DNA of 64,000 nucleotides. It comes from Eledone cirrhosa (taxonomy: Eukaryota). Position 1 is the first letter of the stretch; each line of letters starts with the position of its first letter. The stretch covers positions 97,154,001 through 97,218,000 of the forward strand of contig OZ024744.1 in the NCBI GenBank assembly GCA_964016885.1. Reading direction: 5' to 3'. Under the pieces are notes generated by a model, which was given only the letters and a program-made list of their open reading frames with translations, was not told the origin of the DNA and made no database searches. The position numbers and the translations under genes are program-made. Below, piece by piece: positions 12,662 to 54,904 of this stretch.

Positions 12662-13100
12662 CAAGAAACTGGAACACAATAGACCTGACCTGGTGGTTTT
12701 GGACAAAGAAAAAAGATCGTGCCTGATTTTGGATGTGGCCTGCCCATTCGACACAAGAGTGCAAGAAAAGGAGAGGGAGAAAATTAACCGATACCAGGAC
12801 TTAAAGTGGGAGGTAAAAAGGATTTGGAACTGCCATGAAGTCAAAGTGATCCCGATTGTCATAGGCGCACTAGGGACTATCTTAAAAAGTTTCCAGGGAT
12901 GGTTAAAGAAAATTGGCCCCTTCACGCTTTTTGGAACGCTTCAAAAGCATGCTTGCTGGGAACAGCAAGAACCCTCCGATACGTCCTGAATATCTGAGGC
13001 TGCAGGTAGTGGCTTGATATTCATTTCAACAAACTTTCCAGTTAACTAACATCAATGACTGACTCAAAGAGTAATAATAATAATAATAATAATATTAATA
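12662..13100 (+). mobile_element. R4/Dong-clade LINE, short 5'-truncated copy with (AAT)n tail
   Basis: RLE domain (HNRPDLVVLDKEKRSCLILDVACPFD...EKINRYQDL). The 3' UTR matches the element at 26508-29973. Tail at 13072-13100. Confidence 0.92.
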
Positions 13101-14932
13101 AAAGGCATTTGACATGGTGCCTCATTCTTGGATCACCAAAAGCCTAGAAATCTTCAAGGTGGCAGATAACATCAGACAGTTGTTGGGCAAAAGTATGAAG
13201 TCCTAGAAAACAGAGTTAACATCAGCTGGAGAATCCTTGGGAGGCGTGAAGATCAAGAGAGGTATCTTCCAGGGAGATAGTCTGTCCCCTCTGTTGTTTG
13301 TCCTTGCCCTGATGCCCCTGACCATTATATTGCGAAAAGTGAGAGCAGGATACAAGTTGGGAAAGGGAGAGCTTACCATCAATCACGTCCTCTTCATAGA
13401 CGATCTTAAGCTCTTCGGGAAGAGTGAGAAGGAGTTGGATGTGCTTGTTGACACTGTCCGTATTTTCAGCAATGATATATGTATGCAATTTGGTATTAGT
13501 AAGTGTGGAGTCGTTGTGATGAAAAGGGGTAAATTGAGCAGAAGCAACGGAATCCAGGTACCAACAGGTGAGATGATAAAGGAAATTGACACTGAAGAAG
13601 GATACAAGTATTTGGGTGTTCTGGAGGCTGATAACATCAAGAACAAAAAAATAAAGGAATTGATAAGATCTGAGTACATTCGGAGAGTAAGGAGCGTATT
13701 AAAATCACACCTGAACAGTAGGAATGCCATAAGTGCAGTAAATTCCCGAACTGTGTCTATTATTAGGTACAGTGCGGGAATTCTGAGATGGAATGTTGCT
13801 GAACAAAAAGAAATGGATAGGAAAACTAGGAAGCTATTGACTATCTACAACATGTTCCACAAGAGGAGTGATGTGGATAGACTCTACTTAAGGAGATCTG
13901 AAGGTGGAAGAGGTCTTATCAGCATAGAGGACTGTGTTCAGATGGAAAAAAACAACCTACACAAATACGTGACTGATAGTAAGGAGTCAATGTTCAGAAT
14001 TGTACTGAAGGAGAGTACAATAGACTAGGGGATGTCCAAGGAGGAAATAACAACAAGGAGAAAGAGCAGCCTTCATGAAAAATCCCTTCATAGTACCTTC
14101 TTTGAGAAAACTGAATTCAGAGATCCACAGACATGGAACTGGTTGAAAAGAGGAGACCTTAAAAAGGCTGCAGAAGGAATGTTAATGGCTGCGCAAGAGC
14201 AAGCCCTCAAAACGAAGTGGCTGAAACACCATATTGACAAGTAGGAGGCTACCCCACTGTGCAGGATCTGTGGAGAGAGAAAGAGGAGACTGTGGCTCAC
14301 ATTGTATCCGAGTCTAAACACCTAGCCCAGACTCACTATAAGGGCTGGAGACATGATGTGATGGGCAGGGTGATCCACTGGCACCTATGCAAAGTAAACA
14401 ATTTACCACATTCTGAGAAGTGGTATGGGCATAAGCCAGAGTCGGTGATAGAAAACGATCATGTGAAGGTCCTATGGGATTTTAGGATACAGACGGACAA
14501 GAAACTGGAACACAATAGACCTGACCTGGTGGTTTTGGACAAGGAAAAAAGATCGTGCCTGATTGTGGATGTGGCCTGCCCATTCGACACGAGAGTGCAA
14601 GAGAAGGAGAGGGAGAAAATTAACCGATACCAGGACTTAAAGTGGGAGGTAAAAAGGATTTGGAACTGCCATGAAGTCAAAGTGGTCCCGATTGTCATAG
14701 GCGCACTAGGTACTATCTAAAAAAGTTTCCAGGGATGGTTAAAGAAAACTGGCCCCAACCCGCTTTTTGGAACACTTCAAAAGGCATGCTTGCTGGGAAC
14801 AGCAAGAACCCTCCGATACGTCCTGAATATCTGAGGCTGCAGGTAGTGGCTTGATATTCATTTCAACAAACTTTCCAGTTAACTAACATCAATGACTGAA
14901 ACTTAAAGAACAATAATAATAATAATAATAAT
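13101..14932 (+). mobile_element. R4/Dong-clade LINE, 5'-truncated decayed copy with (AAT)7 tail
   Basis: Starts at KAFDMVPHSW. Contains RT motifs GIFQGDSLSP and LFIDDLK, a CCHC remnant and the RLE domain, with in-frame stops. It begins immediately after the tail of the previous copy. Confidence 0.93.
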
Positions 14933-17900
14933 GATTTCTTTATTGGCCACAAGGGCTGACATCAAGAAAAACATTGTTTTGTTCGAGTAAAGATTTTTTA
15001 TTATTTATATAAGAAAAGAAAAAGAAAAAGACATAGAAACATATATATATATAAACAATAAAAATGAAAATTGAAACAATGAAAAATTCCTCAATAGGGG
15101 GGAAACCTCCGAGGGTTACTCGTGACGAAAACCACACAAAAGACCACGGCCACCCTGACCAACAGGGCAAGCGCCCTCTCTCAATTTTTCCATTTCTCAA
15201 ACTACAGGCGTATATTCAGAGCGGTCCCGTTTACTCGGCCCATTCTCACTACATTCACCCACCTTTCAACAAACTTGCTAGAAGGCAGCACTTGCCTCTC
15301 CACTCTGATTTTCCTCTTCAAGTGAAACTTGAAAAAGTTAATTAGGGATTCGCCGAAGAGGAAAGTGTCTGTCTTTAACCTTTTCAACCTTGTCCACCAC
15401 ACAATCTCTTTCGTCATGGCCACCAGACAGATGAAAACAGCTTGCCCTTCCTCCTCGAAGGAAGACGGCGAGACCATCTGCACAATGGACTCAGTCGATA
15501 ACCGGATCAGTCCTACATGCGACAACAAGTGTTCGACATAGCTCCACAAGTCAGCAATGCTCGAGCACTGAACGAGTGCGTGCACGACGGCTTCGTCGCT
15601 CTGCGCGCATCTCGGACAGGCTCGGCTGACGGCGCTTCCGTGCTTGTAGAGCTTATCTCGAACCGGCAGCGCTCCCCGGTAGCACTGCCAGGCCAGGGAT
15701 TTTTGGAAGTTATCCATAGGCCCTGGGCTGAAAGTTCTCCAGAAGAGAGCAAACAGCTGATCTTCTTCGACGCCCAGGATCTCTCCGAGAACGTCGTCGC
15801 TCTTCCTCTCCACTAGACCTCTTTAGAACGCCGAGGTGGATGTTCCACCGATACTGGTGCCCAGCTTGCAGAGGGCAGTGAGCGCCTGGAGACATTCCAG
15901 TTTCCAAGCGCTATCTCTCGGTCTTTTTCTGACCCAGGACTGCAGCTCCGTCAAGGAGACGAGCTATGGGAAAACGTGCCTGGCGAACGGCGACCACACC
16001 TGTTCACCGTCAAGGAAGCACCAGAGATCTCGCAGCCTCAGCGCATGTTTGCGCGTCTTCAGCCATGGCATGCCCAGTCCTCCACGCAACGGGTGTTGAC
16101 AGCAGATGGATCGTCTGACCATGGGATCGCGTCCCTTCCACAAAAAACGGAAGAGGAGGCGCTCCATTTTGGTGAGATTTGTATTGGAGCAAGGGACGAC
16201 GGTGAGGCGGTAGCAGATGACGGACTCGATGTACGCATTCGCCACCTTCGCCTGGCCTTTCAGGGACAGTTTTCTCTCGGCCCATTTCTGGGTGAGGGAG
16301 GCCACTCTGCTCGTCACCTCGCTCCAGGTTTTCTCCATCTGGAGGTCCGGTCCGAATCAGGGCCCGAGCAATTTAACCGGTCCGTCCGTCCGACGCCCCA
16401 CAGCGCTGTCGGACGGCATGGACTTTCCTCTCCAGGTGCCGAGTTGCAAGCCCACCGACTTTTCCTGGTTTATCTTTGTTCCTGTCACCGCTTCGTATTC
16501 CTTGAGAGCGGTGCCGAGCATCTGGACGTGTCTGGTGCTCGACACCACCACGGTGACGTCGTCAGTGTCAGCCGACTCGGATTTCCCGCATCCTAGTTCG
16601 CGTGGGACGCTCCTCATCGCCCCCAGTTTGTGCAGTAACGGCTCGAGAGCCAATACGTACAAGAAGGACGAGAGGGGACAACCCTGGCGCACCGAGCACA
16701 GGATGCTGAACGGCTGCGACAGGTGACCGTTCACCTTCACAACCGAGATGTCGCTGTACATCCCAGCGATCCAACCCCTGAAAACGGGCCCGAAACCGAC
16801 TGCCTCGAGGACCGCCGCCAGGTACCGATTGTCGACCCTATCGAATGCTTTGGATTGATCCAAGTTGACCAGGTTCCTTAACCACCCGTGCCAGGTTCCT
16901 TAACCACCCTCTCTATGATGTATCACATGAGGTGGAGGTTGTCGTGTATGGATCTGTCCGGAATGGCGCATGTCTGCGCCTCTCCTATGAGACCCTTGAC
17001 GACAAGCGCCAACCACTTTGCTAACACGTTGGCCAATATCTTGAACTCTGAGTTTAGCAGGGTTATCGGCCTGAAGTTTTCAATAACATCCCCCTTGTTC
17101 GGGTCTTTTCTCAGCAGCGCCACCGCTCCCCGGCTCACAAAACTGGCAATGCTCCCGTTCTGCTTCCAGTTGCATTAGACGTCTGCCAAGAGGTCCTCGA
17201 ACAAGTCTGGCATAAATGCATAAAGCTCGTAGGGTAGACCATCCAAACCTGGCGATTTACCCCTCATGCAGTTATTTCACCGGCTGTTATTGGCTTTTCG
17301 CAAGATTGTGCTGCAGTCGTCGAGAGCCGAGGCAGTCCGTTGGGGTATGCACTGAAGTCCATACCCCGATTCGGCCCGCCGCTGCTTCCGAACAGTTCAG
17401 CAAATTGCTGCTGAAAAGCTTCACAAATTTCCTCTATCACTAGTCCTTTGCTAAGCCTAATAGACTCTACTTTAATTGCCCTTTTCAGGGCGAACCACCT
17501 CCTGTTGTCGACGACCGCTCACGTCAACGCCCGCTTAACTAATGCGCTAATTCGGTCTCTGCAGAATACCCTATCGAGATACGATCTGGATGACCCGATG
17601 CGGTTTGTCCATGTCCACATTGGCACATTCGGGTGATCCAGTCGATACCTGTCAGACAGTTCAAAACGTCTCAGCAGGTTGGTGAGGCTCTTGCACCCTC
17701 CTACCCTATCCACTAGCCCCACACAATCCTAGCGTGCATCCAAGATACCGTTACAGTCGCCCACTAACACTAAAGAACGGGACGTTCCAAGAAAGGTCTC
17801 TAGACGTCTAAAGAAATCTGGCCGTCCTGTCCCTGTCGGAGCATAGACGGCTACTAGCCTGAAAGCGTTGCCTTCGGTGCCACTTACGTCCAGCCCCACC

Positions 17901-20187
17901 GACTTACCTTCTGAGTCCAGGAAGATGGTCCGTATGGCGAGACCCAAGCCCTTCCGAAACAACACAGCCACTCCCCCCCCGCTCCCAGACGGCTCCGAGA
18001 TGCGTACATCTCGTAACCGTTGAAGATCGGTGCGAAATCATGCGTTTCGGAGATTCTCGTCTCGCTGATGGCCATCACATCTATGTTTAGTGACCTGAGG
18101 TCGTTAAGCAAGTGACCCTGCTTCCAAATCGAGCTCAAGCCACGCACGTTTACATTTCCGATCCTGAATACAGCCATGTTGGGTGAGGAACGGGGTAAGT
18201 GAGAAAGGATCACTTACCTTGATCGTCTGGTGAAGGGACCGTTGAATCGTCCCTTCGGCTGGTCGTCGGCTCTTCTGTGAGTATATCCGAGTATACTCTC
18301 CGGTTGAGTGTCCCTCCTAGGTCTCTGAAATCACCAACTGCGTTGGGGAATTTCATTTTAATGTTTGTGTATTGTTTCTGTGCTATTCCTACCAGTCTTA
18401 TGTTCGTTGGTGTTTTGATTGGTGCTGGTATTATGTAGTGGTGCTGTGAAATGTCTGTGTGATCAATTATGTCAGTCATTAGTTTCTTGTGTGTATTTAT
18501 TGCTGTGCATTTCTTTTTCTGTGGGTGGGGTGTGGTTCTGCTATTTTCTTGTCGTTGCTGGGTGTGCGTGTTTTGTTGTGTTTGCGATGTTGGTGCTTGT
18601 GGTGGTGTTGTTGAAGGTGTTGTTGTTGTTGGCGGTGGTTCTGTGAGGTCGGGAGGGGTATCAGCTCCACTCTTTCACTTGTTCTTGTTGGTGATGGGTG
18701 CAGTGGAGTCTCTGTTGCAGCTGCAGTTGGTATTACTGTTGTTGTTGTTAATACTTCCACTGCTGCTGCTGTTCTTGATTTCCGTGGCGTGGGTATTGGT
18801 GCCACGGACCTATCCTTTCTGCTTGCCGCCTGTCCTGTTGCTGGTAGCAGGGGAGCCGGTTTCGGAAGGAGGGGGATTTCTCCTTTCTCAGGGTCTTTTC
18901 TTTGCAGAAAGCCCTGATGTGAGTCTTCGACCCACAGCGAAAGCATTTCGGGCGTTTGCCCTCAACACTTATGGGAAGTTGAGTGCCGTTATCGAAGTCT
19001 ATCACATCCGGGATAGCTTCGATGCACTCCTGGTTGGTTTGAATTAACATTTCAATGGAGGTACTTTTTTCTGTACTTGCAGTACAGTTGTTTTGTCCGC
19101 GATTCCGACGAGGACAGACGCGGCCAGCCAAGAAGGAGCCATCCCGGGGGGGGGGGGGGGGGGGGGACTTGGGTCAGTTTGACCCTCACAACTTTTTGCC
19201 CGCAGTAGGAGGGCACCAACACCATTTCCTTGCTCCTTAGGGTTCCTAAGGATTGAGCGTTTGCCTCCTGGGGTGTGGCAAAAAGCACGTCCACGGTGGC
19301 ATATTTCTTGCATCTGGTAATATGCGTTTTCCGCTGCCACACAGACTCTAAGGCTTTTTGTATTTGAGCCTCTGTGGCTCTTTCAACCCTACGTGATTTT
19401 GTGCTTACTGTACGGTACGTGACCGTACAGTGCTGTTGGGTTTCGAAAAATTCTTCGGCTGTCTTGCAGATTGCTCGGTGTCCGGTTTTCGTCACCATCT
19501 TCTTTGCTTCCTGTAATTCCTCATTTGTTATAAGGATGATTTCCAGGTTCTTTGCGATACCTGCAAACGAGATTGGTTTTTCTTTCTTGTTGTTGTTGTT
19601 GTTGTCGTCAGAGCTGCTGTTACTTTTGTTGTTGCTGCTGCTGGTCCTACGACCGCCGCCGCCGCTGTTGTTGTTGTAGTTGTTGCTGTTGCTGCTTCTG
19701 TTGTTGTTGCTGCTGCTGCTGTTGTTGTTTATGCTGCTGCTGATGTTGTTGCGGCTGCTACTAGTATTTTTCTCGCCTCGCCACTGTTGCTGCAGCTGCT
19801 GTTATTACGGCTGCTACTGCTATTCTTCATGACGTCAGACGAATGAAATGGCTTTCCGTATTTACCGCACACATCTTTCGTCGTTGTCGTCGTCGTGGAG
19901 AAATGTTCCACGGTATGCGCATTCTCTTGATGAAGAACGCTACGAGAAACTACATTTTTCTTTTTCTTTAATGGTGTCGCTTGCGAAAGAAGCGACAGAG
20001 GCGACACCACATTTAGAGAAGGGAGGGAGAGAGACAATCTTTTCTCTGACGTACTGATGATTGGAGAAGAAGAAGACGGAAGGAGTGGGAGTGACTTGTG
20101 AAAATACTTTTTTGTAGCCATGTTTTTTTACGCTTTAAAATGAATATTGGGCACAAATCCCCAATAACTGGTTATTTAACCCCGAAG
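14933..20187 (-). mobile_element. Decayed L1/Tx1-like LINE, lineage D1 (ORF1 remnants ~18210-20121, ORF2 remnants 15202-~18177)
   Basis: Fragmented APE endonuclease (NVNVRGL, ISETR), RT (DQSKAFDRV, RQGCPLS) and C-terminal Zn finger. ORF1 resembles that of the young copies; the ORF2 N-terminus and 3' UTR are divergent. Confidence 0.92.
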
Positions 20188-23100
20188 TTAATGAGGGCAT
20201 CACCGAAGAGGTAAGTGCTCGTCTTCAGCCCTTCCAAACGTGTCCACCATTCTATCTCTTTCGCCATGGCCACCAGACAGATAAAACCTACCTGCCCTTC
20301 CCGGCTAAAGGAAGAGGGCGGGGCAATCCTCACGATGGACTCAGCTGATAGCTGGATCCGTCCTACACGCGACAGCAGGTATTCGACATAAACCCACAAG
20401 TCAGCAATGCTCGGACACTGGACGAGTGCGTGCAGGACGGTTTCGTCGCCCTGCACGCATGTCGGACATGCCCGGCTGACGGCACCTCCATGCCTGTAGA
20501 GTTTATCCCGAACTGGCAAGGCTCCTCGGTAGCACTGCCAGGCCAGGGATTTCTGGAAGTTGTCCATAGGCCCCGGCCCGAAAGTTCTTCCGAAGAGATT
20601 GGCTAGTTGATTTTCGTCGACGCCTAGATTTTCTCCAAGTATGTCGTCGCTCTTCCCCTCCACTAATCCTGTATAGAACGCCAAGGTGGAGTTTCCACCG
20701 ATCACATTGCCCGATTGGTCGAGGGCTGTGAGCGCCTGAAGATATTCCAGTCTCCAAGCGCTCCCTCTCGGTCTTCGCTTGACCCAGAACTGCAACTCCG
20801 TCAAGGAGACGAGCTGGGGAAAGACGCGTCTAGCAAACGGCGACCACACCTGATCACCGTCGAGTAAGAGGTGGAGATGTCGTAGCCTGACCGCGTGTCT
20901 GCGCATCATCAGCCACGACATACACAGCCCTCCACGTAGCGGGTGTTGACAGCAGATGGACCTCCTGACCATCGGAGCGGGTCCCTTCCACAAAAAGTGA
21001 AAGAGCAAACGCTCCAACGCAGTCAGGCGAGGCTTAGGACAAGGCACGACGGTCAGGCGGTAGTAGATGACGGACGCGATGTACGCGTTAGCCACCTCCG
21101 CTCGACCTTTCAGGGATAGCTTCCTCTCCGCCCATTTCTGGGTGAGAGAAGCCACCCTGCTCGTCACCTCGTCCCAGTTTTTGTCCGTCTGGAGGTCCGG
21201 ACCGAACCAGACCCCTAGCAATTTAACCGGTCGTCCGTCCAGCGTCCGACGACGCTGTTGGACGGCATGGACCTGCCTCTCCAGGTGCCGAGCTGCAGGC
21301 CCACTGACTTTTCCTGGTTGATCATTGCTCCTGTCACCGCTTCGTATTCTCTTAGTGTAGTGCCGATCGCCTCGATGTGTTTGGCGTTCGACACCACTAC
21401 GGTGACATCGTCCGCATCCTAGCTCACGCGGGATCCCCCTCAACGGTTCCAGTTTGTGCAGTAATGGCTCGAGAGTCAATACGTTCAAGAGGGACGAGAG
21501 GGGATATCCTTGGCGGACCGAGCGAATGATGTTGAACAGTTCCGAAAAGTGACCGTTCACTCTCACCACAGAGCAGATGTCACTGTGCATGGCAGCGTTC
21601 CAGCCTCTGAAGACGGGCCCAAAGCCAGCTGCCCTCAGGACTGCCGCTAGGTAACGATGGTCGACCCTATCGAAAGCTTTCGACTGATCTAAATTGATCA
21701 AGGACCCACCCGTGCCAGGTTCCCTAGTTACCCTCTCTACGATGTATCGCATGAGGTGGAGGTTGTCGTGGATGGATCTGTCGGGAATGGCGCATGTCTG
21801 TGCCTCTCCCACCAGACCACCAACGACAAGCGCCAACCTCTTTGCTAGCACCTTGGCCAAAATCTTGAACTCTGTGTTTAACAGAGTTATGGGCCTAAAA
21901 TTATCTATGTTATCCCCCTTGTTCGGATCCTTTCTCAGCAGCGCCACCGCTCCTCGTCTCACAGATCTGGGAATTCTCCCGTTCTGTTGCCAGTTGCAGT
22001 AGATGTCCGCCAAGAGGCCTCCGAACAAGTATGGCATCTGTACGTAAAGTTAATAGGGCAGACCATCCAAACCAGGCGATTTACCCCTTGTGCAGCTAGT
22101 CATTGCCTCCCGTACTTCAGCGGCTGTTATCGGCTTTTCGCAACACCCCACCTCAGTGGCCTAGAGCCGTGGCAGTCCGTCGAGGTAGACACTAAAGTCC
22201 ATCCCTCGATCCGGCCCGCCGCTGCCCCCGAACAACTGAGCGAAGTGTCGCTGAAACGCTTCACACATTTGCTCGGGATCGAGTAGCATGCGCCCGTCGT
22301 GGTCCACCAAAGACCGGATCGTGGCTTTGTTGCCACGACGCGCCTCCGCCACTCGGGGCCACTGAACAGCTTTCGTCCCCTCGTGTATGTGAGCACGCAC
22401 CCTAGCTCTGACAACGCAGCCTTCGAAGAATTGGTCAAGGGCCAATTTCGCCGCAAGTACGTCGGTCGCGATGGCTTTGCTAAGCGCCTCGTCTAATTTT
22501 CTAACTAGTTCTCCCTCTGCTCTATTTTTCTCTATTGCTAAAGCCTTACTAAACCTATTGGACTATTCTAATCACTCTTTTCGTAGCAAACCACCACTTC
22601 TTGTTGACGATGGCCCCCGTCAACTCCCACTTAACTAGTTCGCTAAACCGGTCTCTGTAGGCGTTGCGCGCTGGTAAGGACGCGTTTAGCTTCCAGTAGC
22701 CGGGTCCTCGTCTATGAAGCCTATCTAAGTGAAGCACACAGATCACGAATTTGTGTCCGTGTAGCTGACTATCTTGAATTGTGGACAGCCTATGCTAGAC
22801 CTATCTATTTCGCTACAAAATACTCTATCTAGATATGATCTGGATGACCCTATTCGATTTGTCCAAGTCCACATTGGCACATTCGGGAAATCCAATCGGT
22901 ACCTGTCAGACAGTTCAAAACGCCTGAGCAGGTTGATGAGGCTCTTGCACCATTCTCCCCTATCCGCTAATCCCACACAGTCCCAGCGTGCATCTATGAT
23001 TCCGTTCCAGTCGCCCACTAACACTAAAGAGTGGGACGTTCCAAGAAAGGTCTCAAGACGCCGGAAGAAATCAAGCCGCCCTGCTCCTTACCTTCTGGGT

Positions 23101-25354: not shown

Positions 25355-25363
25355 AATAATAAA

Positions 25364-25423
<60 letters not shown>
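25355..25423. repeat. (AAT)n microsatellite junction
   Basis: Pure AAT run at ~25367-25423, between the D2 5' end and the sequence upstream of the Dong-like ORF. Confidence 0.95.
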
Positions 25424-25424
<1 letters not shown>

Positions 25425-29973: not shown

Positions 29974-29986
29974 AATAACAATAATG

Positions 29987-30066
<80 letters not shown>
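29974..30066. repeat. (AAT)n tract shared as tail by the Dong-like element (+) and Tx1-like copy 1 (-)
   Basis: About 30 AAT units between two convergent element 3' ends. Confidence 0.95.
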
Positions 30067-30068
<2 letters not shown>

Positions 30069-36093: not shown

Positions 36094-36125
<32 letters not shown>

Positions 36126-39804: not shown

Positions 39805-39839
39805 GTTTAAAATAGAGTGGAAAAGATGGGAAAGACCAC

Positions 39840-41969: not shown

Positions 41970-42149
41970 AACCCCAATAACTGGTTATTTAACCCCGAAG
42001 GGCCAAATAATGGACAGAAAGACCCCTCTCACGAGGAGGAGGGTGTCTTTATCAACAATTTGGTTCAAGTTTTAAACAATTTACAATTGTTTTAACGGTT
42101 AAAAATTACTATACCTTACAGAGCCGAGCCTCCGTCAACCATGGCATTC

Positions 42150-42181
<32 letters not shown>

Positions 42182-42433
42182 TTTCATTTATTGGCCACAA
42201 GGGCCGACATATAGGGGACAACACAATAGACAGGGACAGTGGGGGTTTACATAGAGATCGAGTAAGTATAAATAACAAAAAAAACAAAATAACAATAAAA
42301 ATACAACAATGAAAGTTCCCCAATAAGAGGGATCACCACCCAGGGTTGACTCAAGCACCCCACCAGTCCTGAGCCACCCGACGCTCCTAGGGCACCCGGG
42401 AAGGGCACCCCTCTCCTTCTCGAATTCACCAGC

Positions 42434-45856: not shown

Positions 45857-45890
45857 GTTTAAATAGAGTGGAAAAGATGGGAAAGACCAC

Positions 45891-48020
45891 TTACCGTACT
45901 TTTGGTAGAGGAGGGATGGTTTTTACATCCCTTTTCACTTGATCGTCTGGTGAAGGGACCGTTGAATCGTCCCTTCGGCTGGTCGTCGGCTCTTCTAAGA
46001 GAATGTCTGAATATACTCTTCGATTGATGGTTCCTCCTAGGTCCCTGAAATCACCAACTGCGTTGGGGAATTTCGTTTTAATGTTTGTGTATTGTTTCTG
46101 TGCTATTTTTAGCAGTCTTATGTTAGTTGGCGTTTTGATTGGTGCTGGTATTATGTAGTCCTGTTGTGAAATGTCTGTGTGTTCAATTATGTAAGTCATT
46201 AGTTTCTTGTTGTGTGTGTTTATTGCCGTGCATTTGTTTTTCTGGGGGTGGGGTGTGGTTCTGCTATTTTCTTGTCGTTGTTGCTGGGTGTGTGTGTTTT
46301 GTTGTTGTGTTTGCGATGTTGGTGCTTGTGGTGGTGGTGTTGAAGGTGTTGTTGGCGGTGGGGTTGTCGCCGGTGGTGATGGTGGTGCTAGTGTGGGTGG
46401 TGATGGTGTTGGTGTTGTTGCTGCTGTGGGTCTCTTTGCAGTAGACTTTACCCTTTTCTCATTTCTTTCCTCCCTTTTCAAAGGCGACGATGCGCTGCTT
46501 CTGCGTTTGTGCCTTCTTGCGACCTTTTGCCATCCCTCTCCCACCTCACACTCCATGTCTGATTCTGTGAGGTCGGGGAGGGGTACCAGCTCCACTCTTT
46601 CACTTGTTGTTGTTGGTGATGTTTGCACTGGAGTCTCTGTTGCAGCTGCATTTGGTATTGCTGTTGTTGTTGTTAATATTTCCACTGCTGCTGCTGTCTT
46701 TGATTTCCGTGGAGTGGGTATGGGTGCCACGGACCTATCGTTCCTGGTTGCCGCTTGTCCTGTTGCTGGTAGCCGTGGAGCCGGATTCGGAAGGAGGGGG
46801 GTTTTCTCCTTTCTCAGGGTCTTCTCGTTGCAGAAGGCCCTGAGGTGAGTCTTCGATCCACAGCGAAAGCATTTCGGGCGTTTGCCCTCAACACTTATGG
46901 GCAGTTGAGTGCCGTTATCGAAGTCTATCACATCCGGGATAGCTTCGATGCACTCCTGGTTGGTTTGGATTAGCATCTCAATGGAGGAGCCGACCCAATC
47001 TTCTCTTACTTTTTTCTGTACTTGCAGTACAGTTGTTTTGTCCTCGATTCCGACGAGGACAGACGCGGCCAGCCAAGAAGGGGTCATTCCGGGGGGGACG
47101 TGGGTCAGTTTGACCCTCACAATTTTTTGCCCGCAGTAGGAGGGCACCAACACCATTTCCTCGCTGCTTAGGGTCACTACTGATTGGGCCTTTGCCTCCT
47201 GGGGTGTGGCAAAAAGTACGTCTACGGTGGCGTATTTTTTGCCTCGGGTGATGTGCGTTTTCCTCTGCCACACAGACCCCAAGGCTTTTTGTATTTGGGC
47301 CTCTGTGGCTCTTTCCACCCTACGGGATTTTGTACTTACTGTACGGTACGTGACCGTACAGTGCTCTTGGGTTTCGAAAAAATTTTTCGCTGCCTTGCAG
47401 ATTGCTCGGTGTCCGTTCTTTGTCACCATCTTCTTCGCTTCCTCTAATTCCTCATTTGTTATGAGGATTGTTTCCAAGTTTTTCGCAATACCTGCAAATG
47501 AGATTGGTTTGTCTCTGCTGTTGTTGTTGTCGTCAGAGCTGCTGGTACTTTTGTTGTTGCTGCAGGTACTACGACTACTGCCTCCGCCGCTGTTGCTGTG
47601 GTTGTTGTTGGTGTTGCTGCTGCTAATGCTGTTGTTGTTTATGCTGCTGGTGATGCTGTTGCGGCTGCTACTGTTGTTTTCATTGTCACTGTTGCTGTTG
47701 TTATTACGGCTGCTACTGCTATTATTCCTGACGTCAGACGAATGAACTGGGTTTTCGTATTTCCCGCACACCTGTTTCGTCGCTGTCGTCGTCGTCGTGG
47801 AGAAACTTTGCACGCTTTGCACGAGACTTTTCTTTTCTTTCGTCACTTGCGAAAGAGAAGGGAGGGAGAGAGACACATTTAAAGAAGGGAGGGAGAGAGA
47901 CAATCTTCTCTCTGCTGTAGTGATGATTGAGGAAGAAGAAGACGGAATGAGTGGGAGTGACGTATGAAATTTCTTTTTGGTAGCCATGTTTTTTTGTTTA
48001 AAATGAAATTTTGGGTACAA
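45891..48020 (-). CDS. ORF1p of copy 3 (709 aa)
   Basis: Near-identical to copy 1 ORF1. Confidence 0.9.
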   Translation of the reverse strand: MYPKFHFKQKNMATKKKFHTSLPLIPSSSSSIITTAERRLSLSLPSLNVSLSLPSLSQVTKEKKSLVQSVQSFSTTTTTATKQVCGKYENPVHSSDVRNNSSSSRNNNSNSDNENNSSSRNSITSSINNNSISSSNTNNNHSNSGGGSSRSTCSNNKSTSSSDDNNNSRDKPISFAGIAKNLETILITNEELEEAKKMVTKNGHRAICKAAKNFFETQEHCTVTYRTVSTKSRRVERATEAQIQKALGSVWQRKTHITRGKKYATVDVLFATPQEAKAQSVVTLSSEEMVLVPSYCGQKIVRVKLTHVPPGMTPSWLAASVLVGIEDKTTVLQVQKKVREDWVGSSIEMLIQTNQECIEAIPDVIDFDNGTQLPISVEGKRPKCFRCGSKTHLRAFCNEKTLRKEKTPLLPNPAPRLPATGQAATRNDRSVAPIPTPRKSKTAAAVEILTTTTAIPNAAATETPVQTSPTTTSERVELVPLPDLTESDMECEVGEGWQKVARRHKRRSSASSPLKREERNEKRVKSTAKRPTAATTPTPSPPTLAPPSPPATTPPPTTPSTPPPQAPTSQTQQQNTHTQQQRQENSRTTPHPQKNKCTAINTHNKKLMTYIIEHTDISQQDYIIPAPIKTPTNIRLLKIAQKQYTNIKTKFPNAVGDFRDLGGTINRRVYSDILLEEPTTSRRDDSTVPSPDDQVKRDVKTIPPLPKVR

Positions 48021-48207
48021 AACCCCAATAACTGGTTATTTAACCCCGAAGGGCCAAATAACGGACAGAAAGACCCCTCTCACGAGGAGGAGGGTGTCTT
48101 TATCAACAATTTGGTTCAAGTTTTAAACAATTTACAATTGTTTTAACGGTTAAAAATTACTATACCTTACAGAGCCGAGCCTCCGTCAACCATGGCATTC
48201 AATAATC

Positions 48208-48209
<2 letters not shown>

Positions 48210-48239
<30 letters not shown>

Positions 48240-48387
48240 TGTGTCTACTATTGGCACAAGGCCAGCAATTTTCCAGTACATTACTGGTACTTTATTTTAT
48301 CGATCCAGTAAGGATGAAAGGCAAAGTTAACCTCGTCGGGATTTGAACTCAGATTATAAAGAGCCGTAACTCTTTGCTGCAAAGCCA
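48210..48387 (-). mobile_element. 5'-truncated SINE with (ATT)10 tail between array copies 3 and 4
   Basis: Same family as 8125-8949; retains the B box GAGTTCAAATCCC and lacks the head. Confidence 0.9.
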
Positions 48388-48659
48388 AATAATAATGATT
48401 TCTTTATTAACCACAAGGGTTTACATAAAGTAGACATTAAGGACAGTGCAGGACAATGCAGGACGGTACAAATGGGCATTTCTGCGTGTAAAAAAAACAA
48501 AAACAGAGGATGTAACAAAAATAACAATGAAAATAACAATGAAAAATTCCCCAATAGGGGGGAGACTTCGGAGGGACATTTGTGGAGAAAGCCCAGTAAA
48601 AAGCCACAATGACCCTGACCACCAAGGCAAGTGCCCTCTCCCAGTTTTCCACCTTTAGT

Positions 48660-51600
48660 TTACAGATATATACTCAGAGTCGGCCCATTCACTCGGGCCA
48701 TTCTTGCTTCTCTCACCCATCTTTCAACAAAATGCTGGGAAGAGAGCACTTCCTTCTCTACTCTGATTTTCCTTTTCAAATGAAATTTGAAAAAGTCAAT
48801 CAGAGCATCACCGAAGAGGTAAGTGCTCGTCTTCAGCCCTTTCAAACGTGTCCACCATACTATCTCTTTCGCCATGGCCACCAGACAGATAAAAACTGCC
48901 TGCCCTTCCCGGCTAAAGGAGGAGGGCGGGGCAATCCTCACGATGGACTCAGATGATAGCTGGATCCGTCCTAAACGCGACAGCAGGTGTTCGACATAAA
49001 CCCACAAGTCAGCAATTTTCGGACACTGGACGAGTGCGTGCAGGACGGTTTCGTCGCCCTGCGCGCATCTCGGACATGCCCGGCTGACGGCACCTCCATG
49101 CCTGTAGAGTTTATCCCGAACTGGCAAGGCTCCTCGGTAGCACTGCCAGGCCAGAGATTTCTGGAAGTTGTCCATAGGCCCTGGCCCGAAAGTTCTTCCG
49201 AAGAGATTGGCTAGTTGATTTTCGTCGACGCCTAGAGTTTCCCCAAGTACGTCGTCGCTCTTCCCCTCCACTAATCCTCTATAGAACGCCGAGGTGGAGT
49301 TTCCACCGATCACATTGCCCGATTGGTCGAGGGCTGTGAGCGCCTGAAGACATTCCAGTCTCCAGGCGCTCCCTCTCGGTCTTCGCTTGACCCAGGACTG
49401 CAGCTCCGTCAAGGAAACGAGCTGGGGAAAAACGCGTCTAGCAAACGGCGACCACACCTGATCACCGTCGAGGAAGAGGTGGAGATGTCGTAGCCTGAGC
49501 GCGTGCCTGCGCATCATCAGCCACGGCATGCCCAGCCCTCCACGTAGCGGGTGTTGACAACAGATGGACCGCCTGACCATCGGAGCACGTCCCTTCCACA
49601 AAAAGCGAAAGAGCAAACGCTCCAGCGCAGTCAGGCGAGGCTTAGGACAAGGTACGACGGTTAGGCGGTAGCAGATGACAGACGCGATGTACGCGTTAGC
49701 CACCTCCGCTCGACCTTTCAGGGATAGCTTCCTCTCCGCCCATTTCTGGGTGAGAGAAGCCACCCTGCTCGTCACCTCGTCCCAGTTTTTGTCCGTCTGG
49801 AGGTCCGGACCGAACCAGACCCCTAGCAATTTAACCGGTCCGTCCGTCCAGCGCCCGACGACGCTGTTGGACGGCATGGACCTGCCTCTCCAGGTGCCGA
49901 GCTGCAGGCCCACTGACTTTTCCTGGTTGATCATTGCTCCTGTCACCGCTTCGTATTCTCTTAGTGTAGTGCCGATCGCCTCGATGTGTTTGGCGTTCGA
50001 CACCACTACGGTGACATCGTCCGCATATGCTGACACGGATCTTCCGCATCCTAGTTCGCGCGGGACTCCCCTCAACGTCTCCAGTTTGTGCAGTAATGGC
50101 TCGAGAGTCAATACGTACAAGAGGGACGAGAGGGGACATCCTTGGCGGACCGAGCGCATGATGTTGAACGGTTCCGACAGGTGACCGTTCACTCTCACCA
50201 CAGAGCAGATGTCGCTGTGCATGGCAGCGATCCAGCCTCTGAAGACGGGCCCAAAGCCAGCCGCCCTCAGGACTGCCGCTAGGTAACGATGGTCGACCCT
50301 ATCGAAAGCTTTCGACTGATCTAAATTGATCAAGGACCCACCCGTGCCAGGTTCCCTAGCTACCCTCTCTACGATGTATCGCATGAGGTGGAGGTTGTCG
50401 TGGATGGATCTGTCGGGAATGGCGCATGTCTGCGCCTCTCCCACCAGACCACCAACGACAAGCGCCAACCTCTTTGCTAGCACCTTGGCCAAAATCTTAA
50501 ACTCTGTGTTTAGCAGAGTTATGGGCCGGAAATTGTCTATGTTATCCCCCTTGTTCGGATCCTTTCTCAGCAGTGCCACCGCTCCTCGGCTCACAGAACT
50601 GGGAATTCTCCCGTTCTGTTGCCAGTTGCAGTAGACGTCCGCCAAGAGGCCTCCGAACAAGTCTGGCATCTGTACGTAAAGTTCATAGGGCAGACCATCC
50701 AAACCAGGCGATTTACCCCTTGTGCAGCCAGTCATTGCCTCCCTTACTTCAGCGGCTGTTATCGGCTTTTCGCAACACTTCGCCTCAGTGGCCGAGAGCC
50801 GCGGCAGTCCGTCGAGGTAGACACTAAAGTCCATCCCTCTACCCGGCCCCCCGCTGCCCCCGAACAGCTGAGCGAAGTGTTGCTGAAAAGCTTCACACAT
50901 TTGCCCGGGATCGAGTAGCATGCGCCCGTCGTGGTCCACCAAAGACCGGATCGTGGCTTTGTTGCCACGACGCGCCTCCGCCACTCGGGCCCATTGAACG
51001 GCTTTCGTCCCCTCGTGTCTGAGAGCACGCACCTTAGCTCTGACAACGCAGCCTTCGTGCTTTGCATTGAAGAATTGGTCAAGGGCCAATTTCGCCGCAA
51101 GCACGTCGGTCGCAATGCCTTTGCTAAGCGCCTCGTCTAATTTTCTAACTAGTTCTCCCTCTGCTCTATTTTTCTCTATTGCTAAAGCCTTACTAAACCT
51201 AATCGATTCTATTCTAATCGCTCTTTTCAGAGCAAACCACCACTTGTTGTTGACGATGGCCCCCGTCAACGCCCGCTTAACTAGTTCGCTAATCCGGTCT
51301 CTGTAGGCCTTGCGCGCTGGTAAGGACGCGTTTAGCTTCCAGTAGCCGGGTCCTCGTCTATGAAGCCTATCTAAGTCAAGCACACAGATCACAAATTTGT
51401 GGTCCGTGTAGCTGACTATCTTGAATTGTGGACAGCCTATGCTAGACCTATCTATTTCCCTACAAAATACTCTATCTAGATATGATCTGGATGACCCTAT
51501 GCGGTTTGTCCAAGTCCACATTGGCACATTCGGGAAATCCAATCGGTACCTGTCAGACAGTTCAAAACGCCTGAGCAGGTTGGTGAGGCTCTTGCACCCT

Positions 51601-52079
51601 CCACCCCTATCCGCTAATCCCACACAGTCCCAGCGTGCATCTAAGATCCCGTTCCAGTCGCCCACTAACACTAAAGAGCGGGACGTTCCAAGAAAGGTCT
51701 CCAGACGCCGGAAGAAATCAGGCCGCCCTGCTCCTGTCGGGGCATAGACGGCCACTAGCCTGAAAGCTTGCCCGTCTCCGCTGGTCACGTCCAGCACCAC
51801 CAGCTTACCCTCTGGGTCCAGGAAGATGGCCCGTATGGCGAGATCCAAACCTCTCCGAAAAAGCACAGCAACTCCTCCACCCGATCCAGGACGGCTGGGA
51901 GATGCGTACACATCGTAGCCGCCGAAGATCGGTACGAAGGCCCGTGCTTCGGAGATTCTGGTCTCGCTGATGGCCACTACATCTATGTTTAGTGACCTGA
52001 GGTCGTTGAGCAGGTGACCCTGCTTCCATGACGACCCCAAGCCACGCGCATTTATGCTGCCTATTCTGAGTGAGGTCAT
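48660..52079 (-). CDS. ORF2p of copy 4 (1139 aa)
   Basis: APE-RT-ZnF motifs as in copy 1. Confidence 0.96.
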   Translation of the reverse strand: MTSLRIGSINARGLGSSWKQGHLLNDLRSLNIDVVAISETRISEARAFVPIFGGYDVYASPSRPGSGGGVAVLFRRGLDLAIRAIFLDPEGKLVVLDVTSGDGQAFRLVAVYAPTGAGRPDFFRRLETFLGTSRSLVLVGDWNGILDARWDCVGLADRGGGCKSLTNLLRRFELSDRYRLDFPNVPMWTWTNRIGSSRSYLDRVFCREIDRSSIGCPQFKIVSYTDHKFVICVLDLDRLHRRGPGYWKLNASLPARKAYRDRISELVKRALTGAIVNNKWWFALKRAIRIESIRFSKALAIEKNRAEGELVRKLDEALSKGIATDVLAAKLALDQFFNAKHEGCVVRAKVRALRHEGTKAVQWARVAEARRGNKATIRSLVDHDGRMLLDPGQMCEAFQQHFAQLFGGSGGPGRGMDFSVYLDGLPRLSATEAKCCEKPITAAEVREAMTGCTRGKSPGLDGLPYELYVQMPDLFGGLLADVYCNWQQNGRIPSSVSRGAVALLRKDPNKGDNIDNFRPITLLNTEFKILAKVLAKRLALVVGGLVGEAQTCAIPDRSIHDNLHLMRYIVERVAREPGTGGSLINLDQSKAFDRVDHRYLAAVLRAAGFGPVFRGWIAAMHSDICSVVRVNGHLSEPFNIMRSVRQGCPLSSLLYVLTLEPLLHKLETLRGVPRELGCGRSVSAYADDVTVVVSNAKHIEAIGTTLREYEAVTGAMINQEKSVGLQLGTWRGRSMPSNSVVGRWTDGPVKLLGVWFGPDLQTDKNWDEVTSRVASLTQKWAERKLSLKGRAEVANAYIASVICYRLTVVPCPKPRLTALERLLFRFLWKGRAPMVRRSICCQHPLRGGLGMPWLMMRRHALRLRHLHLFLDGDQVWSPFARRVFPQLVSLTELQSWVKRRPRGSAWRLECLQALTALDQSGNVIGGNSTSAFYRGLVEGKSDDVLGETLGVDENQLANLFGRTFGPGPMDNFQKSLAWQCYRGALPVRDKLYRHGGAVSRACPRCAQGDETVLHALVQCPKIADLWVYVEHLLSRLGRIQLSSESIVRIAPPSSFSREGQAVFICLVAMAKEIVWWTRLKGLKTSTYLFGDALIDFFKFHLKRKIRVEKEVLSSQHFVERWVREARMARVNGPTLSIYL

Positions 52080-52114
52080 GTTTAAAATAGAGTGGAAAAG
52101 ATGGGAAAGACCAC

Positions 52115-54238
52115 TTACCGTACTTTTGGTAGAGGAGGGATGGTTTTTACATCCCTTTTCACTTGATCGTCTGGTGAAGGGACCGTTGAATCGTCCCTTC
52201 GGCTGGTCGTCGGCTCTTCTAAGAGAATGTCTGAGTATACTCTTCGATTGATGGTTCCTCCTAGGTCCCTGAAATCACCAACTGCGTTGGGGAATTTCGT
52301 TTTAATGTTTGTGTATTGTTTCTGTGCTATTTTTAGCAGTCTTATGTTAGTTGGCGTTTTGATTGGTGCTGGTATTATGTAGTCCTGTTGTGAAATGTCT
52401 GTGTGTTCAATTATGTAAGTCATTAGTTTCTTGTTGTGTGTATTTATTGCCGTGCATTTGTTTTTCTGGGGGTGGGGTGTGGTTCTGCTATTTTCTTGTC
52501 GTTGTTGCTGGGTGTGTGTGTTTTGTTGTTGTGTTTGCGATGTTGGTGCTTGTGGTGTTGAAGGTGTTGTTGGCGGTGGGGTTGTCGCCGGTGGTGATGG
52601 TGGTGCTGGTGTGGGTGGTGATGGTGTTGGTGGTGTTGCTGCTGTGGGTCTCTTTGCAGTAGACTTTACCCTTTTCTCATTTCTTTCCTCCCTTTTCAAA
52701 GGCGACGATGCGCTGCTTCTGCGTTTGTGCCTTCTTGAGACCTTTTGCCATCCCTCTCCCACCTCACACTCCATGTCTGATTCTGTAAGGTCGGGGAGGG
52801 GTACCAGCTCCACTCTTTCACTTGTTGTTGTTGGTGATGTTTGCACTGGAGTCTCTGTTGCAGCTGCATTTGGTATTGCTGTTGTTGTTGTTAATATTTC
52901 CACTGCTGCTGCTGTCTTTGATTTCCGTGGAGTGGGTATGGGTGCCACGGACCTATCGTTCCTGGTTGCCGCTTGTCCTGTTGCTGGTAGCCGTGGAACC
53001 GGATTCGGGAGGAGGGGGGTTTTCTCCTTTCTCAGGGTCTTCTCGTTGCAGAAGGCCCTGAGGTGAGTCTTCGATCCACAGCGAAAGCATTTCGGGCGTT
53101 TGCCCTCAACACTTATGGGCAGTTGAGTGCCGTTATCGAAGTCTATCACATCCGGGATAGCTTCGATGCACTCCTGGTTGGTTTGGATTAGCATCTCAAT
53201 GGAGGAGCCGACCCAATCTTCTCTTACTTTTTTCTGTACTTGCAGTACAGTTGTTTTGTCCTCGATTCCGACGAGGACAGACGCGGCCAGCCAAGAAGGG
53301 GTCATTCCGGGGGGGACGTGGGTCAGTTTGACCCTCACAATTTTTTGCCCGCAGTAGGAGGGCACCAACACCATTTCCTCGCTGCTTAGGGTCACTACTG
53401 ATTGGGCCTTTGCCTCCTGGGGTGTGGCAAAAAGTACGTCTACGGTGGCGTATTTTTTGCCTCGGGTGATGTGCGTTTTCCTCTGCCACACAGACCCCAA
53501 GGCTTTTTGTATTTGGGCCTCTGTGGCTCTTTCCACCCTACGGGATTTTGTACTTACTGTACGGTACGTGACCGTACAGTGCTCTTGGGTTTCGAAAAAA
53601 TTTTTCGCTGCCTTGCAGATTGCTCGGTGTCCGTTCTTTGTCACCATCTTCTTCGCTTCCTCTAATTCCTCATTTGTTATGAGGATTGTTTCCAGGTTTT
53701 TCGCAATACCTGCAAATGAGATTGGTTTTTCTCTGCTGTTGTTGTTGTCGTCAGAGCTGCTGGTACTTTTGTTGTTGCTGCAGGTACTACGACTACTGCC
53801 TCCGCCGCTGTTGCTGTGGTTGTTGTTGGTGTTGCTGCTGCTAATGCTGTTGTTGTTTATGCTGCTGGTGATGCTGTTGCGGCTGCTACTGTTGTTTTCA
53901 TTGTCACTGTTGCTGTTGTTATTACGGCTGCTACTGCTATTATTCCTGACGTCAGACGAATGAACTGGGTTTTCGTATTTCCCGCACACCTGTTTCGTCG
54001 CTGTCGTCGTCGTCGTGGAGAAACTTTGCACGCTTTGCACGAGACTTTTCTTTTCTTTCGTCACTTGCGAAAGAGAAGGGAGGGAGAGAGACACATTTAA
54101 AGAAGGGAGGGAGAGAGACAATCTTCTCTCTGCTGTAGTGATGATTGAGGAAGAAGAAGACGGAATGAGTGGGAGTGACGTATGAAATTTCTTTTTGGTA
54201 GCCATGTTTTTTTGTTTAAAATGAAATTTTGGGTACAA
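52115..54238 (-). CDS. ORF1p of copy 4 (707 aa)
   Basis: Near-identical to copy 1 ORF1, with a 2-codon deletion in the Pro-rich tract. Confidence 0.9.
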   Translation of the reverse strand: MYPKFHFKQKNMATKKKFHTSLPLIPSSSSSIITTAERRLSLSLPSLNVSLSLPSLSQVTKEKKSLVQSVQSFSTTTTTATKQVCGKYENPVHSSDVRNNSSSSRNNNSNSDNENNSSSRNSITSSINNNSISSSNTNNNHSNSGGGSSRSTCSNNKSTSSSDDNNNSREKPISFAGIAKNLETILITNEELEEAKKMVTKNGHRAICKAAKNFFETQEHCTVTYRTVSTKSRRVERATEAQIQKALGSVWQRKTHITRGKKYATVDVLFATPQEAKAQSVVTLSSEEMVLVPSYCGQKIVRVKLTHVPPGMTPSWLAASVLVGIEDKTTVLQVQKKVREDWVGSSIEMLIQTNQECIEAIPDVIDFDNGTQLPISVEGKRPKCFRCGSKTHLRAFCNEKTLRKEKTPLLPNPVPRLPATGQAATRNDRSVAPIPTPRKSKTAAAVEILTTTTAIPNAAATETPVQTSPTTTSERVELVPLPDLTESDMECEVGEGWQKVSRRHKRRSSASSPLKREERNEKRVKSTAKRPTAATPPTPSPPTPAPPSPPATTPPPTTPSTPQAPTSQTQQQNTHTQQQRQENSRTTPHPQKNKCTAINTHNKKLMTYIIEHTDISQQDYIIPAPIKTPTNIRLLKIAQKQYTNIKTKFPNAVGDFRDLGGTINRRVYSDILLEEPTTSRRDDSTVPSPDDQVKRDVKTIPPLPKVR

Positions 54239-54425
54239 AACCCCAATAACTGGTTATTTAACCCCGAAGGGCCAAATAACGGACAGAAAGACCCCTCTCA
54301 CGAGGAGGAGGGTGTCTTTATCAACAATTTGGTTCAAGTTTTAAACAATTTACAATTGTTTTAACGGTTAAAAATTACTATACCTTACAGAGCCGAGCCT
54401 CCGTCAACCATGGCATTCAATAATC

Positions 54426-54427
<2 letters not shown>

Positions 54428-54457
<30 letters not shown>

Positions 54458-54605
54458 TGTGTCTACTATTGGCACAAGGCCAGCAATTTTCCAGTACATT
54501 ACTGGTACTTTATTTTATCGATCCAGTAAGGATGAAAGGCAAAGTTAACCTCGTCGGGATTTGAACTCAGATTATAAAGAGCCGTAACTCTTTGCTGCAA
54601 AGCCA
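54428..54605 (-). mobile_element. 5'-truncated SINE, identical to the copy at 48210-48387
   Basis: By eye, base-for-base repeat including the truncation point and the AATAATCTT(AAT)10 flank. Confidence 0.9.
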
Positions 54606-54709
54606 AATAATAATAATAATAAATTATATATATATATACGCACACACTCACACACACACACGCGCGCACACACATCTATATATACATATACACATACAAA
54701 TACATAACA

Positions 54710-54902: not shown

Positions 54903-54904
54903 AC

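Follow-up and report, generated by a model that had tools for sequence, protein, structure and literature searches.

Organization of the retrotransposon nest

The window analyzed, a 64-kb stretch of DNA from the octopod Eledone cirrhosa, carries LINEs of two classes and a SINE which are joined largely through AAT tracts. On the forward strand lie three copies of an RLE-type (R4/Dong-like) LINE: Dong1 (12662-13071), a 3' fragment with 95-96% identity to the 3' ends of the other two; Dong2 (13102-14911), which is 5'-truncated, carries four stops and a frameshift, and is 92.4% identical to Dong3, with tblastn as a second line of evidence; and Dong3 (26508-29973), whose single ORF is near-complete, has one frameshift near 28.6 kb and carries RT, CCHC, RHD and RPD..D nuclease motifs. 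The 1.08 kb from the third AAT tract to the first ATG of Dong3 (25425-26507) represents either DNA of the host or an extended 5' UTR of Dong3, and gave neither a self-match in the window nor an Rfam match above chance.

Six L1/Tx1-like LINEs occupy the reverse strand. TxA (14933-20187) is decayed, about 80% identical to TxB in ORF2, and has lost the first 150 bp of its 5' UTR at a deletion junction. TxD (20188-25354) is also decayed, with an ORF2 94-98% identical to that of TxB, a different ORF1 (46% amino acid identity) and 5' UTR, and the 3' 400 bp lost, while its 5' end abuts AAT. TxB1 (30067-36093) is intact, with ORF1 at 35880-33784 (698 aa, one CCHC knuckle) and ORF2 at 33749-30330 (1139 aa; APE, RT and zf-RVT), and its 3' end shows, in order, a hairpin, AATAAA and ATT. 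It is followed by TxB2 (36124-42149), a near-identical copy whose ORF2 is frameshifted once near its start, by TxC3 (42180-48200), an intact chimera with a 3' 1.5 kb derived from a different lineage (75-86%), and by TxB4 (48397-54418), an intact copy.

Two SINEs in the nest, also on the reverse strand (48239-48387 and 54457-54605), lack about 40 nt of the head, have a 3' hairpin in common with the LINE, and are identical to each other, with no difference over 196 bp of junction. Five further copies of this SINE lie between 8.1 and 9.0 kb: two are on the forward strand, and the other three form a reverse-strand train (8503-8956).

Classification of the LINEs

The Dong-like elements show the R4/Dong layout of a single ORF, in which RVT_1 (Pfam) is followed by the CCHC and RHD, RPD..D motifs and no APE is present, and the C-terminal part of Dong3 gave a weak match to the nuclease region of R2 (E 0.002). 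All three copies end in TAA at the 3' side, and the 5' flank is TAA in one, non-TAA in one and unlocated in one.

The reverse-strand ORF2 contains the Pfam domains Exo_endo_phos, RVT_1 and zf-RVT with intact catalytic motifs, and its best solved relative was human L1 ORF2p (E 2e-52, versus 1e-21 for R2). The 698-aa ORF1 matched no Pfam family and carries one CX2CX4HX4C at residue 373; a separate ORF1 with a CCHC knuckle is a feature of the Tx1 clade within the L1 group. In a quick tree of 46 rows, among which there was no named Tx1 sequence, the window copies grouped beside a protein of Argonauta hians, this group being sister to further relatives, and none of the named Tx1 families (Tx1L, Keno, Kibi, Koshi) was returned by the protein or Atlas searches. 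As judged from sequence, these features support membership of the L1/Tx1 group, at the level of the group rather than of the Tx1 clade. The same family was not found in metagenome, genome or viral contigs, where only relatives with at most 48% identity in the best segment were seen. When reads and contigs of sequencing runs were aligned to a LINE-AAT-LINE junction, the family was present in three of four runs but no flank was shown, as the alignment skips the repeat tract, and no dispersed LINE copy was seen together with its 5' flank; in run X10, two contigs each extend 29 letters past an element end into that tract, which would fit a long AAT flank and was not counted.

Dong elements are reported to target TAA repeats (PMC3812793, PMC7998251), and a Myb/SANT-like domain at the N terminus (PMC7998251) and a 5' HDV-like ribozyme, the latter in Bombyx Dong (PMC3774820), are given as features of R4 and R4/Dong elements. 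Similar to the Dong elements of the R4 clade, as far as the available parts of the sources describe them (PMC3812793, PMC7998251, PMC1635306, PMC3774820), the elements here combine a single ORF carrying RT, CCHC and C-terminal RLE motifs with TAA tails, and a truncated copy has a TAA 5' flank. No essential difference was seen; one 5' junction here is without AAT, and near Dong3, whose 5' end is unlocated, an HDV-type ribozyme gave no Rfam match and no match in 25425-26507 to a descriptor run without a positive control. Both Dong-R4 and L1-Tx1 are described as recently active in Octopus vulgaris (PMC13282606).

Copy relationships and probable local amplification

The comparison of the four young copies showed that TxB1 and TxC3 differ at one site over the 5' 4.5 kb, that TxB2 and TxB4 have 13 sites in common, and that TxC3 and TxB4 share an identical 718-bp 5' end plus the SINE junction. 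The four are thus recombinant mosaics, two of them with the identical 196-bp SINE junction, and therefore not independent. The count of 11 insertions for 11 elements was rejected for the same reasons, and by our count about eight independent insertions stand behind the 11 elements; part of the chain is likely to be a later tandem duplication or recombination.

The conflicting patterns of sharing, together with the exact recurrence of (AAT)10 and the 718-bp stretch duplicated without a difference, would also be expected if the four-copy block were partly an assembly artefact (an expanded repeat or mixed haplotypes) and the nest shorter than 42 kb, and no listed contig spanned the queried LINE-AAT-LINE junction. 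However, TxB2 and TxB4 carry private variants in 10 and 14 columns, respectively, and TxC3 has a 3' 1.5 kb of its own, which makes an artefact very improbable indeed, and the left 18 kb and the question of targeting would be unaffected by it.

The 3' hairpin common to SINE and LINE

The 3' hairpin of four pairs common to the LINE and the SINE was evaluated on 11 hand-picked 3' ends, the same ends from which the structure had been derived; in this set 90.9% of the cells are paired and three of the four pairs show two-sided changes, a covariation reached by none of 500 shuffles (slid controls at most 0.19, versus 0.47). Of the pol III boxes of a tRNA-derived head, the SINE contains GTTCAAATCC, which we take to resemble a B box, and no tRNA was found by ARAGORN. 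A structured 3' end in common, as in stringent SINE-LINE pairs, is thus present, and on this sequence likeness a SINE-LINE partnership is inferred. Compared with stringent pairs and with SINEU/Tx1-Mar, as presented in the accessible parts of PMC3747384 and PMC4494074, the 3' stem-loop and the apparent target are likewise common to SINE and LINE, whereas here only about 25 nt are in common and the partner is an octopod L1/Tx1-group LINE, for which no SINE partner was found in the literature searched.

AAT tracts and element junctions

AAT runs of at least three units number 10 on the forward and none on the reverse strand of the whole window, against 0.16 per strand from a first-order Markov model of the nest; all 10 lie inside 13072-54620, with none in the remaining 22 kb, and they have a single polarity despite elements facing both ways. 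The first (13072-13101) is the tail of Dong1 and at the same time the 5' flank of the truncated Dong2. The second (14912-14932) and the fourth (29974-30066) separate the 3' end of a Dong copy, Dong2 and Dong3, respectively, from the 3' end of TxA and of TxB1, and between them the third (25355-25424) forms the 5' flank of TxD, with no Tx or SINE tail directly adjoining. Then follow two (AAT)10 tracts (36094-36123 and 42150-42179), an imperfect tract (48201-48238) with the same sequence as the ninth (54419-54456), an (AAT)3 (48388-48396), and a tract at 54606-54620 which lies between the 5' end of the truncated SINE and non-element DNA and is the most diagnostic junction.

The original prediction had given the first nine of these runs, and its coordinates proved correct, with the tenth now closing the nest; its strand assignments for the three Dong-like copies, the six L1/Tx1-like copies and the two nest SINEs were recovered when the element inventory was re-derived, and so was the Dong-to-Tx configuration across AAT at 14912 and 29974, with two Tx lineages about 80% identical. 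Its statement that nearly all junctions are AAT holds for 10 of the 13, with the 5' end of Dong3 unlocated in one, but 20187 is not the sole exception, since the 5' junction of Dong1 at about 12662 is also without AAT. A readout of target-site duplications was dropped, as these are not readable within a microsatellite and the left edge of the nest is lost.

Evidence on the proposed ATT targeting

At the Tx and SINE 5' junctions in the nest, ATT was found at all seven that survive, the eighth being deleted; these belong to one locus and are not independent. Five of the seven flanks equal the tail of a neighbour, and two, those of TxD (25355) and of the SINE at 54605, have no directly adjoining Tx or SINE tail; the latter flank is unlikely to be the SINE's own head because this copy is 5'-truncated. 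In the SINE train, ATTATT stands at all four boundaries (8503, 8695, 8822 and 8951), including the host-side 5' edge, against a background outside the nest of 3.2e-4 per base per strand, and the two forward-strand copies at 8.1-8.5 kb (two of the five copies there) have no ATTATT at the 5' side. Support for ATT targeting comes from those junctions for which a neighbour's tail gives no direct explanation: the 5' end of TxD (25355), that of the truncated SINE (54606) and the outer edge of the train (8951). The single polarity of the 10 tracts, the covarying 3' hairpin of SINE and LINE and the endonuclease loop common to four lineages also count in its favour. Among the three junctions, the most diagnostic are those of the SINE, and its connection with the LINE is itself presumptive, and the TxD flank could be a TxB1 tail split by Dong3, if 25425-26507 is Dong3 UTR. 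For comparison, a criterion given for target-specific Tx1 insertion is more than 20% of flanks in one repeat type (PMC4494074).

The tail-to-tail junctions, from which an APE-type family specific for (AAT)n had been proposed, were rejected as proof of Tx1 targeting; the published TAA targeting of Dong and an ATT tail on the LINE suffice for them, and an (ATT)n preference is still the best reading on other grounds. A LINE without a sequence target, which makes (ATT)n tails and stacks head-to-tail by tandem amplification or by insertion beside its own copies while TAA-targeting Dong lands in the tails in the opposite orientation, would account for both junctions, for the polarity and for the mosaic young copies. 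Moreover, LINEs of the sister clade (41% amino acid identity) do stack head-to-tail, in linker-free arrays that reach about a dozen copies; no AAT/ATT run of at least four units was seen in 40 of their loci, none of six clear array edges lies within a microsatellite, and the tails of 14 distant relatives showed no AAT/ATT tract, these being mostly short contigs and uninformative. However, such a LINE leaves unaccounted for the (ATT)5 at 54606, where non-element DNA meets the truncated SINE, and the ATTATT on the host side of the train at 8.5-9.0 kb, and it fails on unlike partners (a SINE tail at a LINE head, a lineage C tail at a lineage B head, and young B1 upstream of decayed TxD), and we regard it as rather unlikely.

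An ATT preference could also be real and be set by RNA-DNA pairing instead of the nuclease, where read-through transcripts ending, and perhaps beginning, in AUU repeats would pair at relaxed nicks within AT-rich repeats, nicks made by Dong among them. All lineages have ATT repeats within 6-7 nt after AATAAA and no poly(A), full-length 5' ends directly abut ATT, and L1 nicking is described as looser than integration (PMC1950540), all of which would fit. On the other hand, Dong would nick the other strand and be unable to prime L1/Tx1-group copies, and the stretch aligned with the hairpin-loop region of the L1 endonuclease, a loop with an influence on the choice of target by L1 (PMC1950540), does not differ between TxA, TxD, TxB and TxC, though TxA DNA is only about 80% identical, and varies among proteins of the sister clade, which is not associated with microsatellites. 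Pairing as the determinant is thus doubtful, more so than a LINE without a target.

Proposed mechanism and significance

The anatomy of the nest, its polarity, the intact APE/RT and RLE motifs, the mosaic copies and the common 3' hairpin are direct observations. They are in our view probably explained by local amplification together with an L1/Tx1-group family that prefers (ATT)n, has a SINE as partner and uses the target of Dong in the opposite polarity; the nest would have grown because the L1/Tx1-group APE prefers the AAT repeat. The APE would nick the A-rich strand of the repeat and Dong the T-rich strand. Target-primed reverse transcription may begin at a forward-strand 3'-OH ending in AAT, since AAT is followed directly by GATTTC at each of the five Tx 3' junctions that survive. 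At the 3' end of the RNA, ORF2 would recognise the hairpin, whose loop is CUUGU, and the SINE would therefore also be copied. Each insertion would leave repeat on both sides and so renew the target for both clades, and adjacent similar copies may then be added and shuffled by unequal exchange or by co-mobilisation of SINE+LINE composites.

A wider reading, toward which we lean slightly less than against, is that the APE of an octopod L1/Tx1-group LINE became specific for the A-rich strand of (AAT)n and thereby converged on a target whose other strand is cut by the unrelated RLE of Dong, and that it also drives an abundant SINE by way of a small hairpin at the 3' end, so that AAT tracts would be seeded, split and lengthened by three element classes together and become self-growing chains, with ORF1, ORF2 and 3' modules swapped and SINE+LINE composites moving as units.

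Known microsatellite targets are (TC)n for Kibi, (TTC)n for Koshi and (TTCC)n/(TTTC)n for crocodilian Tx1 families (PMC4494074, PMC3812793). Similar to these, as far as the available text describes them, the LINEs here are APE-type two-ORF L1/Tx1-group elements in microsatellites; the key differences are the (ATT)n repeat, one base off the Koshi unit if read as TTA, the octopod host, and a specificity drawn from few junctions, with a likeness to Kibi and Koshi of features rather than of established kinship. TRAS and SART of Bombyx likewise build chains as two oppositely oriented families in one simple repeat, but both are described as R1-type on telomeric repeats (PMC10088271), while here APE and RLE classes meet on an interstitial trinucleotide tract. 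Microsatellite targeting and opposite-strand use of one repeat are thus already known and no principle is changed; no description of an AAT/ATT target for the L1/Tx1 group was found, and the supplements of PMC4494074 may list further Tx1 targets. If the interpretation is true, a trinucleotide target would join the short list for APE-type LINEs, and two naturally paired nucleases, unrelated to each other and acting on opposite strands of one 3-bp repeat, would offer a clean test of whether the nuclease loop or RNA pairing determines targeting. An octopod SINE would thereby gain both a motor and a rule of insertion, in a group in which SINEs account for about 12% of the genome of O. vulgaris (PMC13282606), and local chains of retrotransposons would be explained as well.

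Anatomy of the AAT-linked nest

The scan identified 10 AAT runs of at least three units, every one on the + strand and within 13072-54620, in comparison to an expected 0.16 runs per strand, while the same scan found no ATT run of at least three units in the whole window. Based on self-comparison and ORFs, 11 elements occupied 40.5 of the 42.0 kb of the nest (12662-54620): three R4/Dong-like LINE copies (Dong1, Dong2 and Dong3) on the + strand, and six APE-type LINE copies of the L1/Tx1 group (TxA, TxD, TxB1, TxB2, TxC3 and TxB4) with two SINE copies (48239-48387 and 54457-54605) on the - strand. AAT was present at 10 of 13 junctions and absent from two (12662 and 20187), the remaining one being the unlocated 5' end of Dong3. 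The results thus agreed with the original prediction of an AAT-joined chain, and the nest is a genuine feature. The same prediction had named 20187 as the sole exception, which is correct as to 20187, where a deletion took the first 150 bp of TxA and the last 400 bp of TxD, but not as to its being the only one, since 12662 is also non-AAT.

Between AAT tract 3 and the Dong3 ORF lies a kilobase (25425-26507) with ACC-rich and A-rich blocks. Just outside the nest ends are (ACAT)n tracts at 12615-12661 and 54903-55908, the latter with a 212-bp unit recurring between ACAT runs; these tracts are possibly another repeat-linked element, its remnant adjoining Dong1. Elsewhere in the window, decayed Pif1-like helicase reading frames at about 10100-12290 (Pfam Pif1_2B_dom, E 7e-10) are probably a Helitron remnant, a 17-bp satellite at 1692-7973 flips direction near 3020, with 79 copies in one orientation and 293 in the opposite one, and a 37-bp AT-rich satellite at 58581-63648 (about 138 copies) is broken by (TG)n tracts.

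Domains and relatives of the two LINE clades

The ORF2 of TxB1 carried APE, RT and zf-RVT domains whose motifs are intact, with human L1 ORF2p as its best solved relative, and its ORF1 carried a single CCHC knuckle. TxB1, TxC3 and TxB4 were intact, TxB2 had one frameshift, and TxA and TxD each had at least eight stops. The single ORF of Dong3, interrupted by one frameshift, had motifs for RT, CCHC and a restriction-like nuclease, and weakly matched the R2 nuclease region; by their nucleases, the APE-type and Dong-like LINEs are not related. Among named proteins, the nearest to the LINE ORF2 came from Argonauta hians (73% identity across the RT region), and an Octopus sinensis protein matched a short stretch. 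No named Tx1 sequence turned up among the matches, and a quick tree of 46 rows placed the APE family no further than with Argonauta, next to unnamed relatives. The LINE or part of it was present in 12 public runs from seven studies, nine of which, under six organism labels, held at least half of its words. A splice-donor-like GGTAAGT was seen at the ORF1 stop of TxB1 (about 33780-33790, -) and TxD (about 23400, -), whose ORF1s are divergent.

Relationship among the young copies

In the first 4.5 kb, TxB1 and TxC3 differed at one site, TxB2 and TxB4 had 13 variants in common, and the remaining pairs of young copies differed at 23 to 28 columns. TxC3 and TxB4 shared an identical 718-bp 5' end, imperfect repeat and SINE. 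TxC3 (42180-48200) joined a TxB1-type 5' part to 1.5 kb of foreign sequence at its 3' end, and TxD (20188-25354) combined a TxB-like ORF2 with a foreign ORF1 and 5' UTR, the switch lying near the ORF1 end. These conflicting sharing patterns and swapped modules require recombination, tandem duplication or a co-mobilised SINE and LINE composite, so that the young copies cannot be counted as independent insertions, and the sequences suggest about eight events behind the 11 elements.

SINE copies and the shared hairpin

Five copies of the nest's SINE were found at 8132-8956, two on + and three on -. The three - copies form a train (8503-8956), outside the nest interval, with ATTATT at all four boundaries against a background of 3.2e-4 per base per strand; ATTATT was absent from the 5' side of both + copies. 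Two of the three train copies have an internal deletion past the first 11 to 12 head bases. The link between SINE and LINE is a hairpin whose CUUGU loop is conserved and whose stem is compensated, and this hairpin is also found in the sister clade of related LINEs; the hairpin controls are lenient because the 11 ends were hand-chosen and the structure was derived from the same ends.

Evidence on ATT targeting

The original prediction that Tx1-like LINEs target (AAT)n had relied in part on tail-to-tail junctions with Dong. TAA repeats are described as Dong insertion sites in PMC3812793, PMC7998251 and PMC1635306, and a LINE merely ending in ATT would draw Dong in the opposite orientation, so both junctions can form with no specificity on the part of the LINE. 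A further caution comes from the sister clade (41% at the amino acid level), which was found as eukaryote-type DNA inside a bacterial bin and stacks head-to-tail. It had 49 3' ends in the retrieved loci and 59 motif matches in the bin; no AAT or ATT run of at least four units was found across 40 loci, nor a microsatellite at any of six clear array edges (seven regions examined, one unclear). LINE stacking alone therefore proves nothing on targeting, although binning probably favors such arrays, which need not typify the clade. In the 'uncultured Arenicella' bin (CAXXMW01), contigs of microsatellite-rich eukaryote-type DNA consist of homogeneous head-to-tail arrays whose units are intact L1/Tx1-group LINEs of 6.4-6.8 kb; one contig has about a dozen of them consecutively. 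Every array has a short junction specific to it and lacks a microsatellite linker; these contigs are likely host DNA in which LINEs act as a macrosatellite.

Besides the ATTATT boundaries of the SINE train, what spoke for targeting, and made tail-only stacking unlikely, was the 5' flanks: all seven surviving 5' junctions of Tx and SINE copies had ATT, then G or TG. Five of these flanks are a neighbor's tail, several joining unlike partners, and two, at TxD and the SINE at 54605, have no adjoining tail. The TxD 5' end was weakly collinear with those of TxB (score 59 versus 45 +/- 5, with 5 of 500 shuffles as high), and its flank loses weight if the kilobase before the Dong3 ORF is Dong3 UTR. 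The SINE at 54605 is missing about 40 nt from its head, and upstream are (ATT)5 and then non-element DNA. Support also came from the endonuclease segment aligned to the L1 hairpin-loop region, which was the same in all four lineages (A, B, C and D) and varied in the sister clade; an RNA-guided preference for ATT is considered improbable. Partial misassembly is regarded as a very remote explanation. Reads and contigs aligned to a LINE-AAT-LINE junction covered both ends in three of four runs, in an output that skips the AAT tract itself and so shows no flanks. In run X7, summed contig depth, which is not copy number, was several-fold greater at the LINE 3' end than at the 5' end.

No (AAT)n- or (ATT)n-targeting family of the Tx1 or L1 group, and no octopod SINE-Tx1 pair, was found in a literature search that took in PMC4494074, PMC3812793, PMC7998251, PMC3774820, PMC10088271, PMC1635306, PMC13282606, PMC8967140, PMC9115989, PMC4758252, PMC3747384, PMC4640811 and PMC1950540. 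The likeliest record of such a family, in Kojima and Fujiwara 2004 or Repbase Reports, lies outside that scope, so the claim of novelty is soft.

Proposed mechanism

All five surviving Tx 3' ends read AAT|GATTTC on the + strand; in the element's own sense each is closely preceded by AATAAA, and poly(A) was found at none of the five. We consider it probable that an ATT-targeting LINE with its partner SINE used the same repeat as Dong in the opposite orientation, with later exchange between copies. Under standard target-primed reverse transcription, the APE would nick the A-rich strand and prime from a 3' end in AAT, while Dong, on +, would be primed from the T-rich strand. Each insertion would leave repeat at both sides, and the tract would thus stay open to insertion by Dong, the APE-type LINE and the SINE alike. 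Near-identical neighbors would then exchange.
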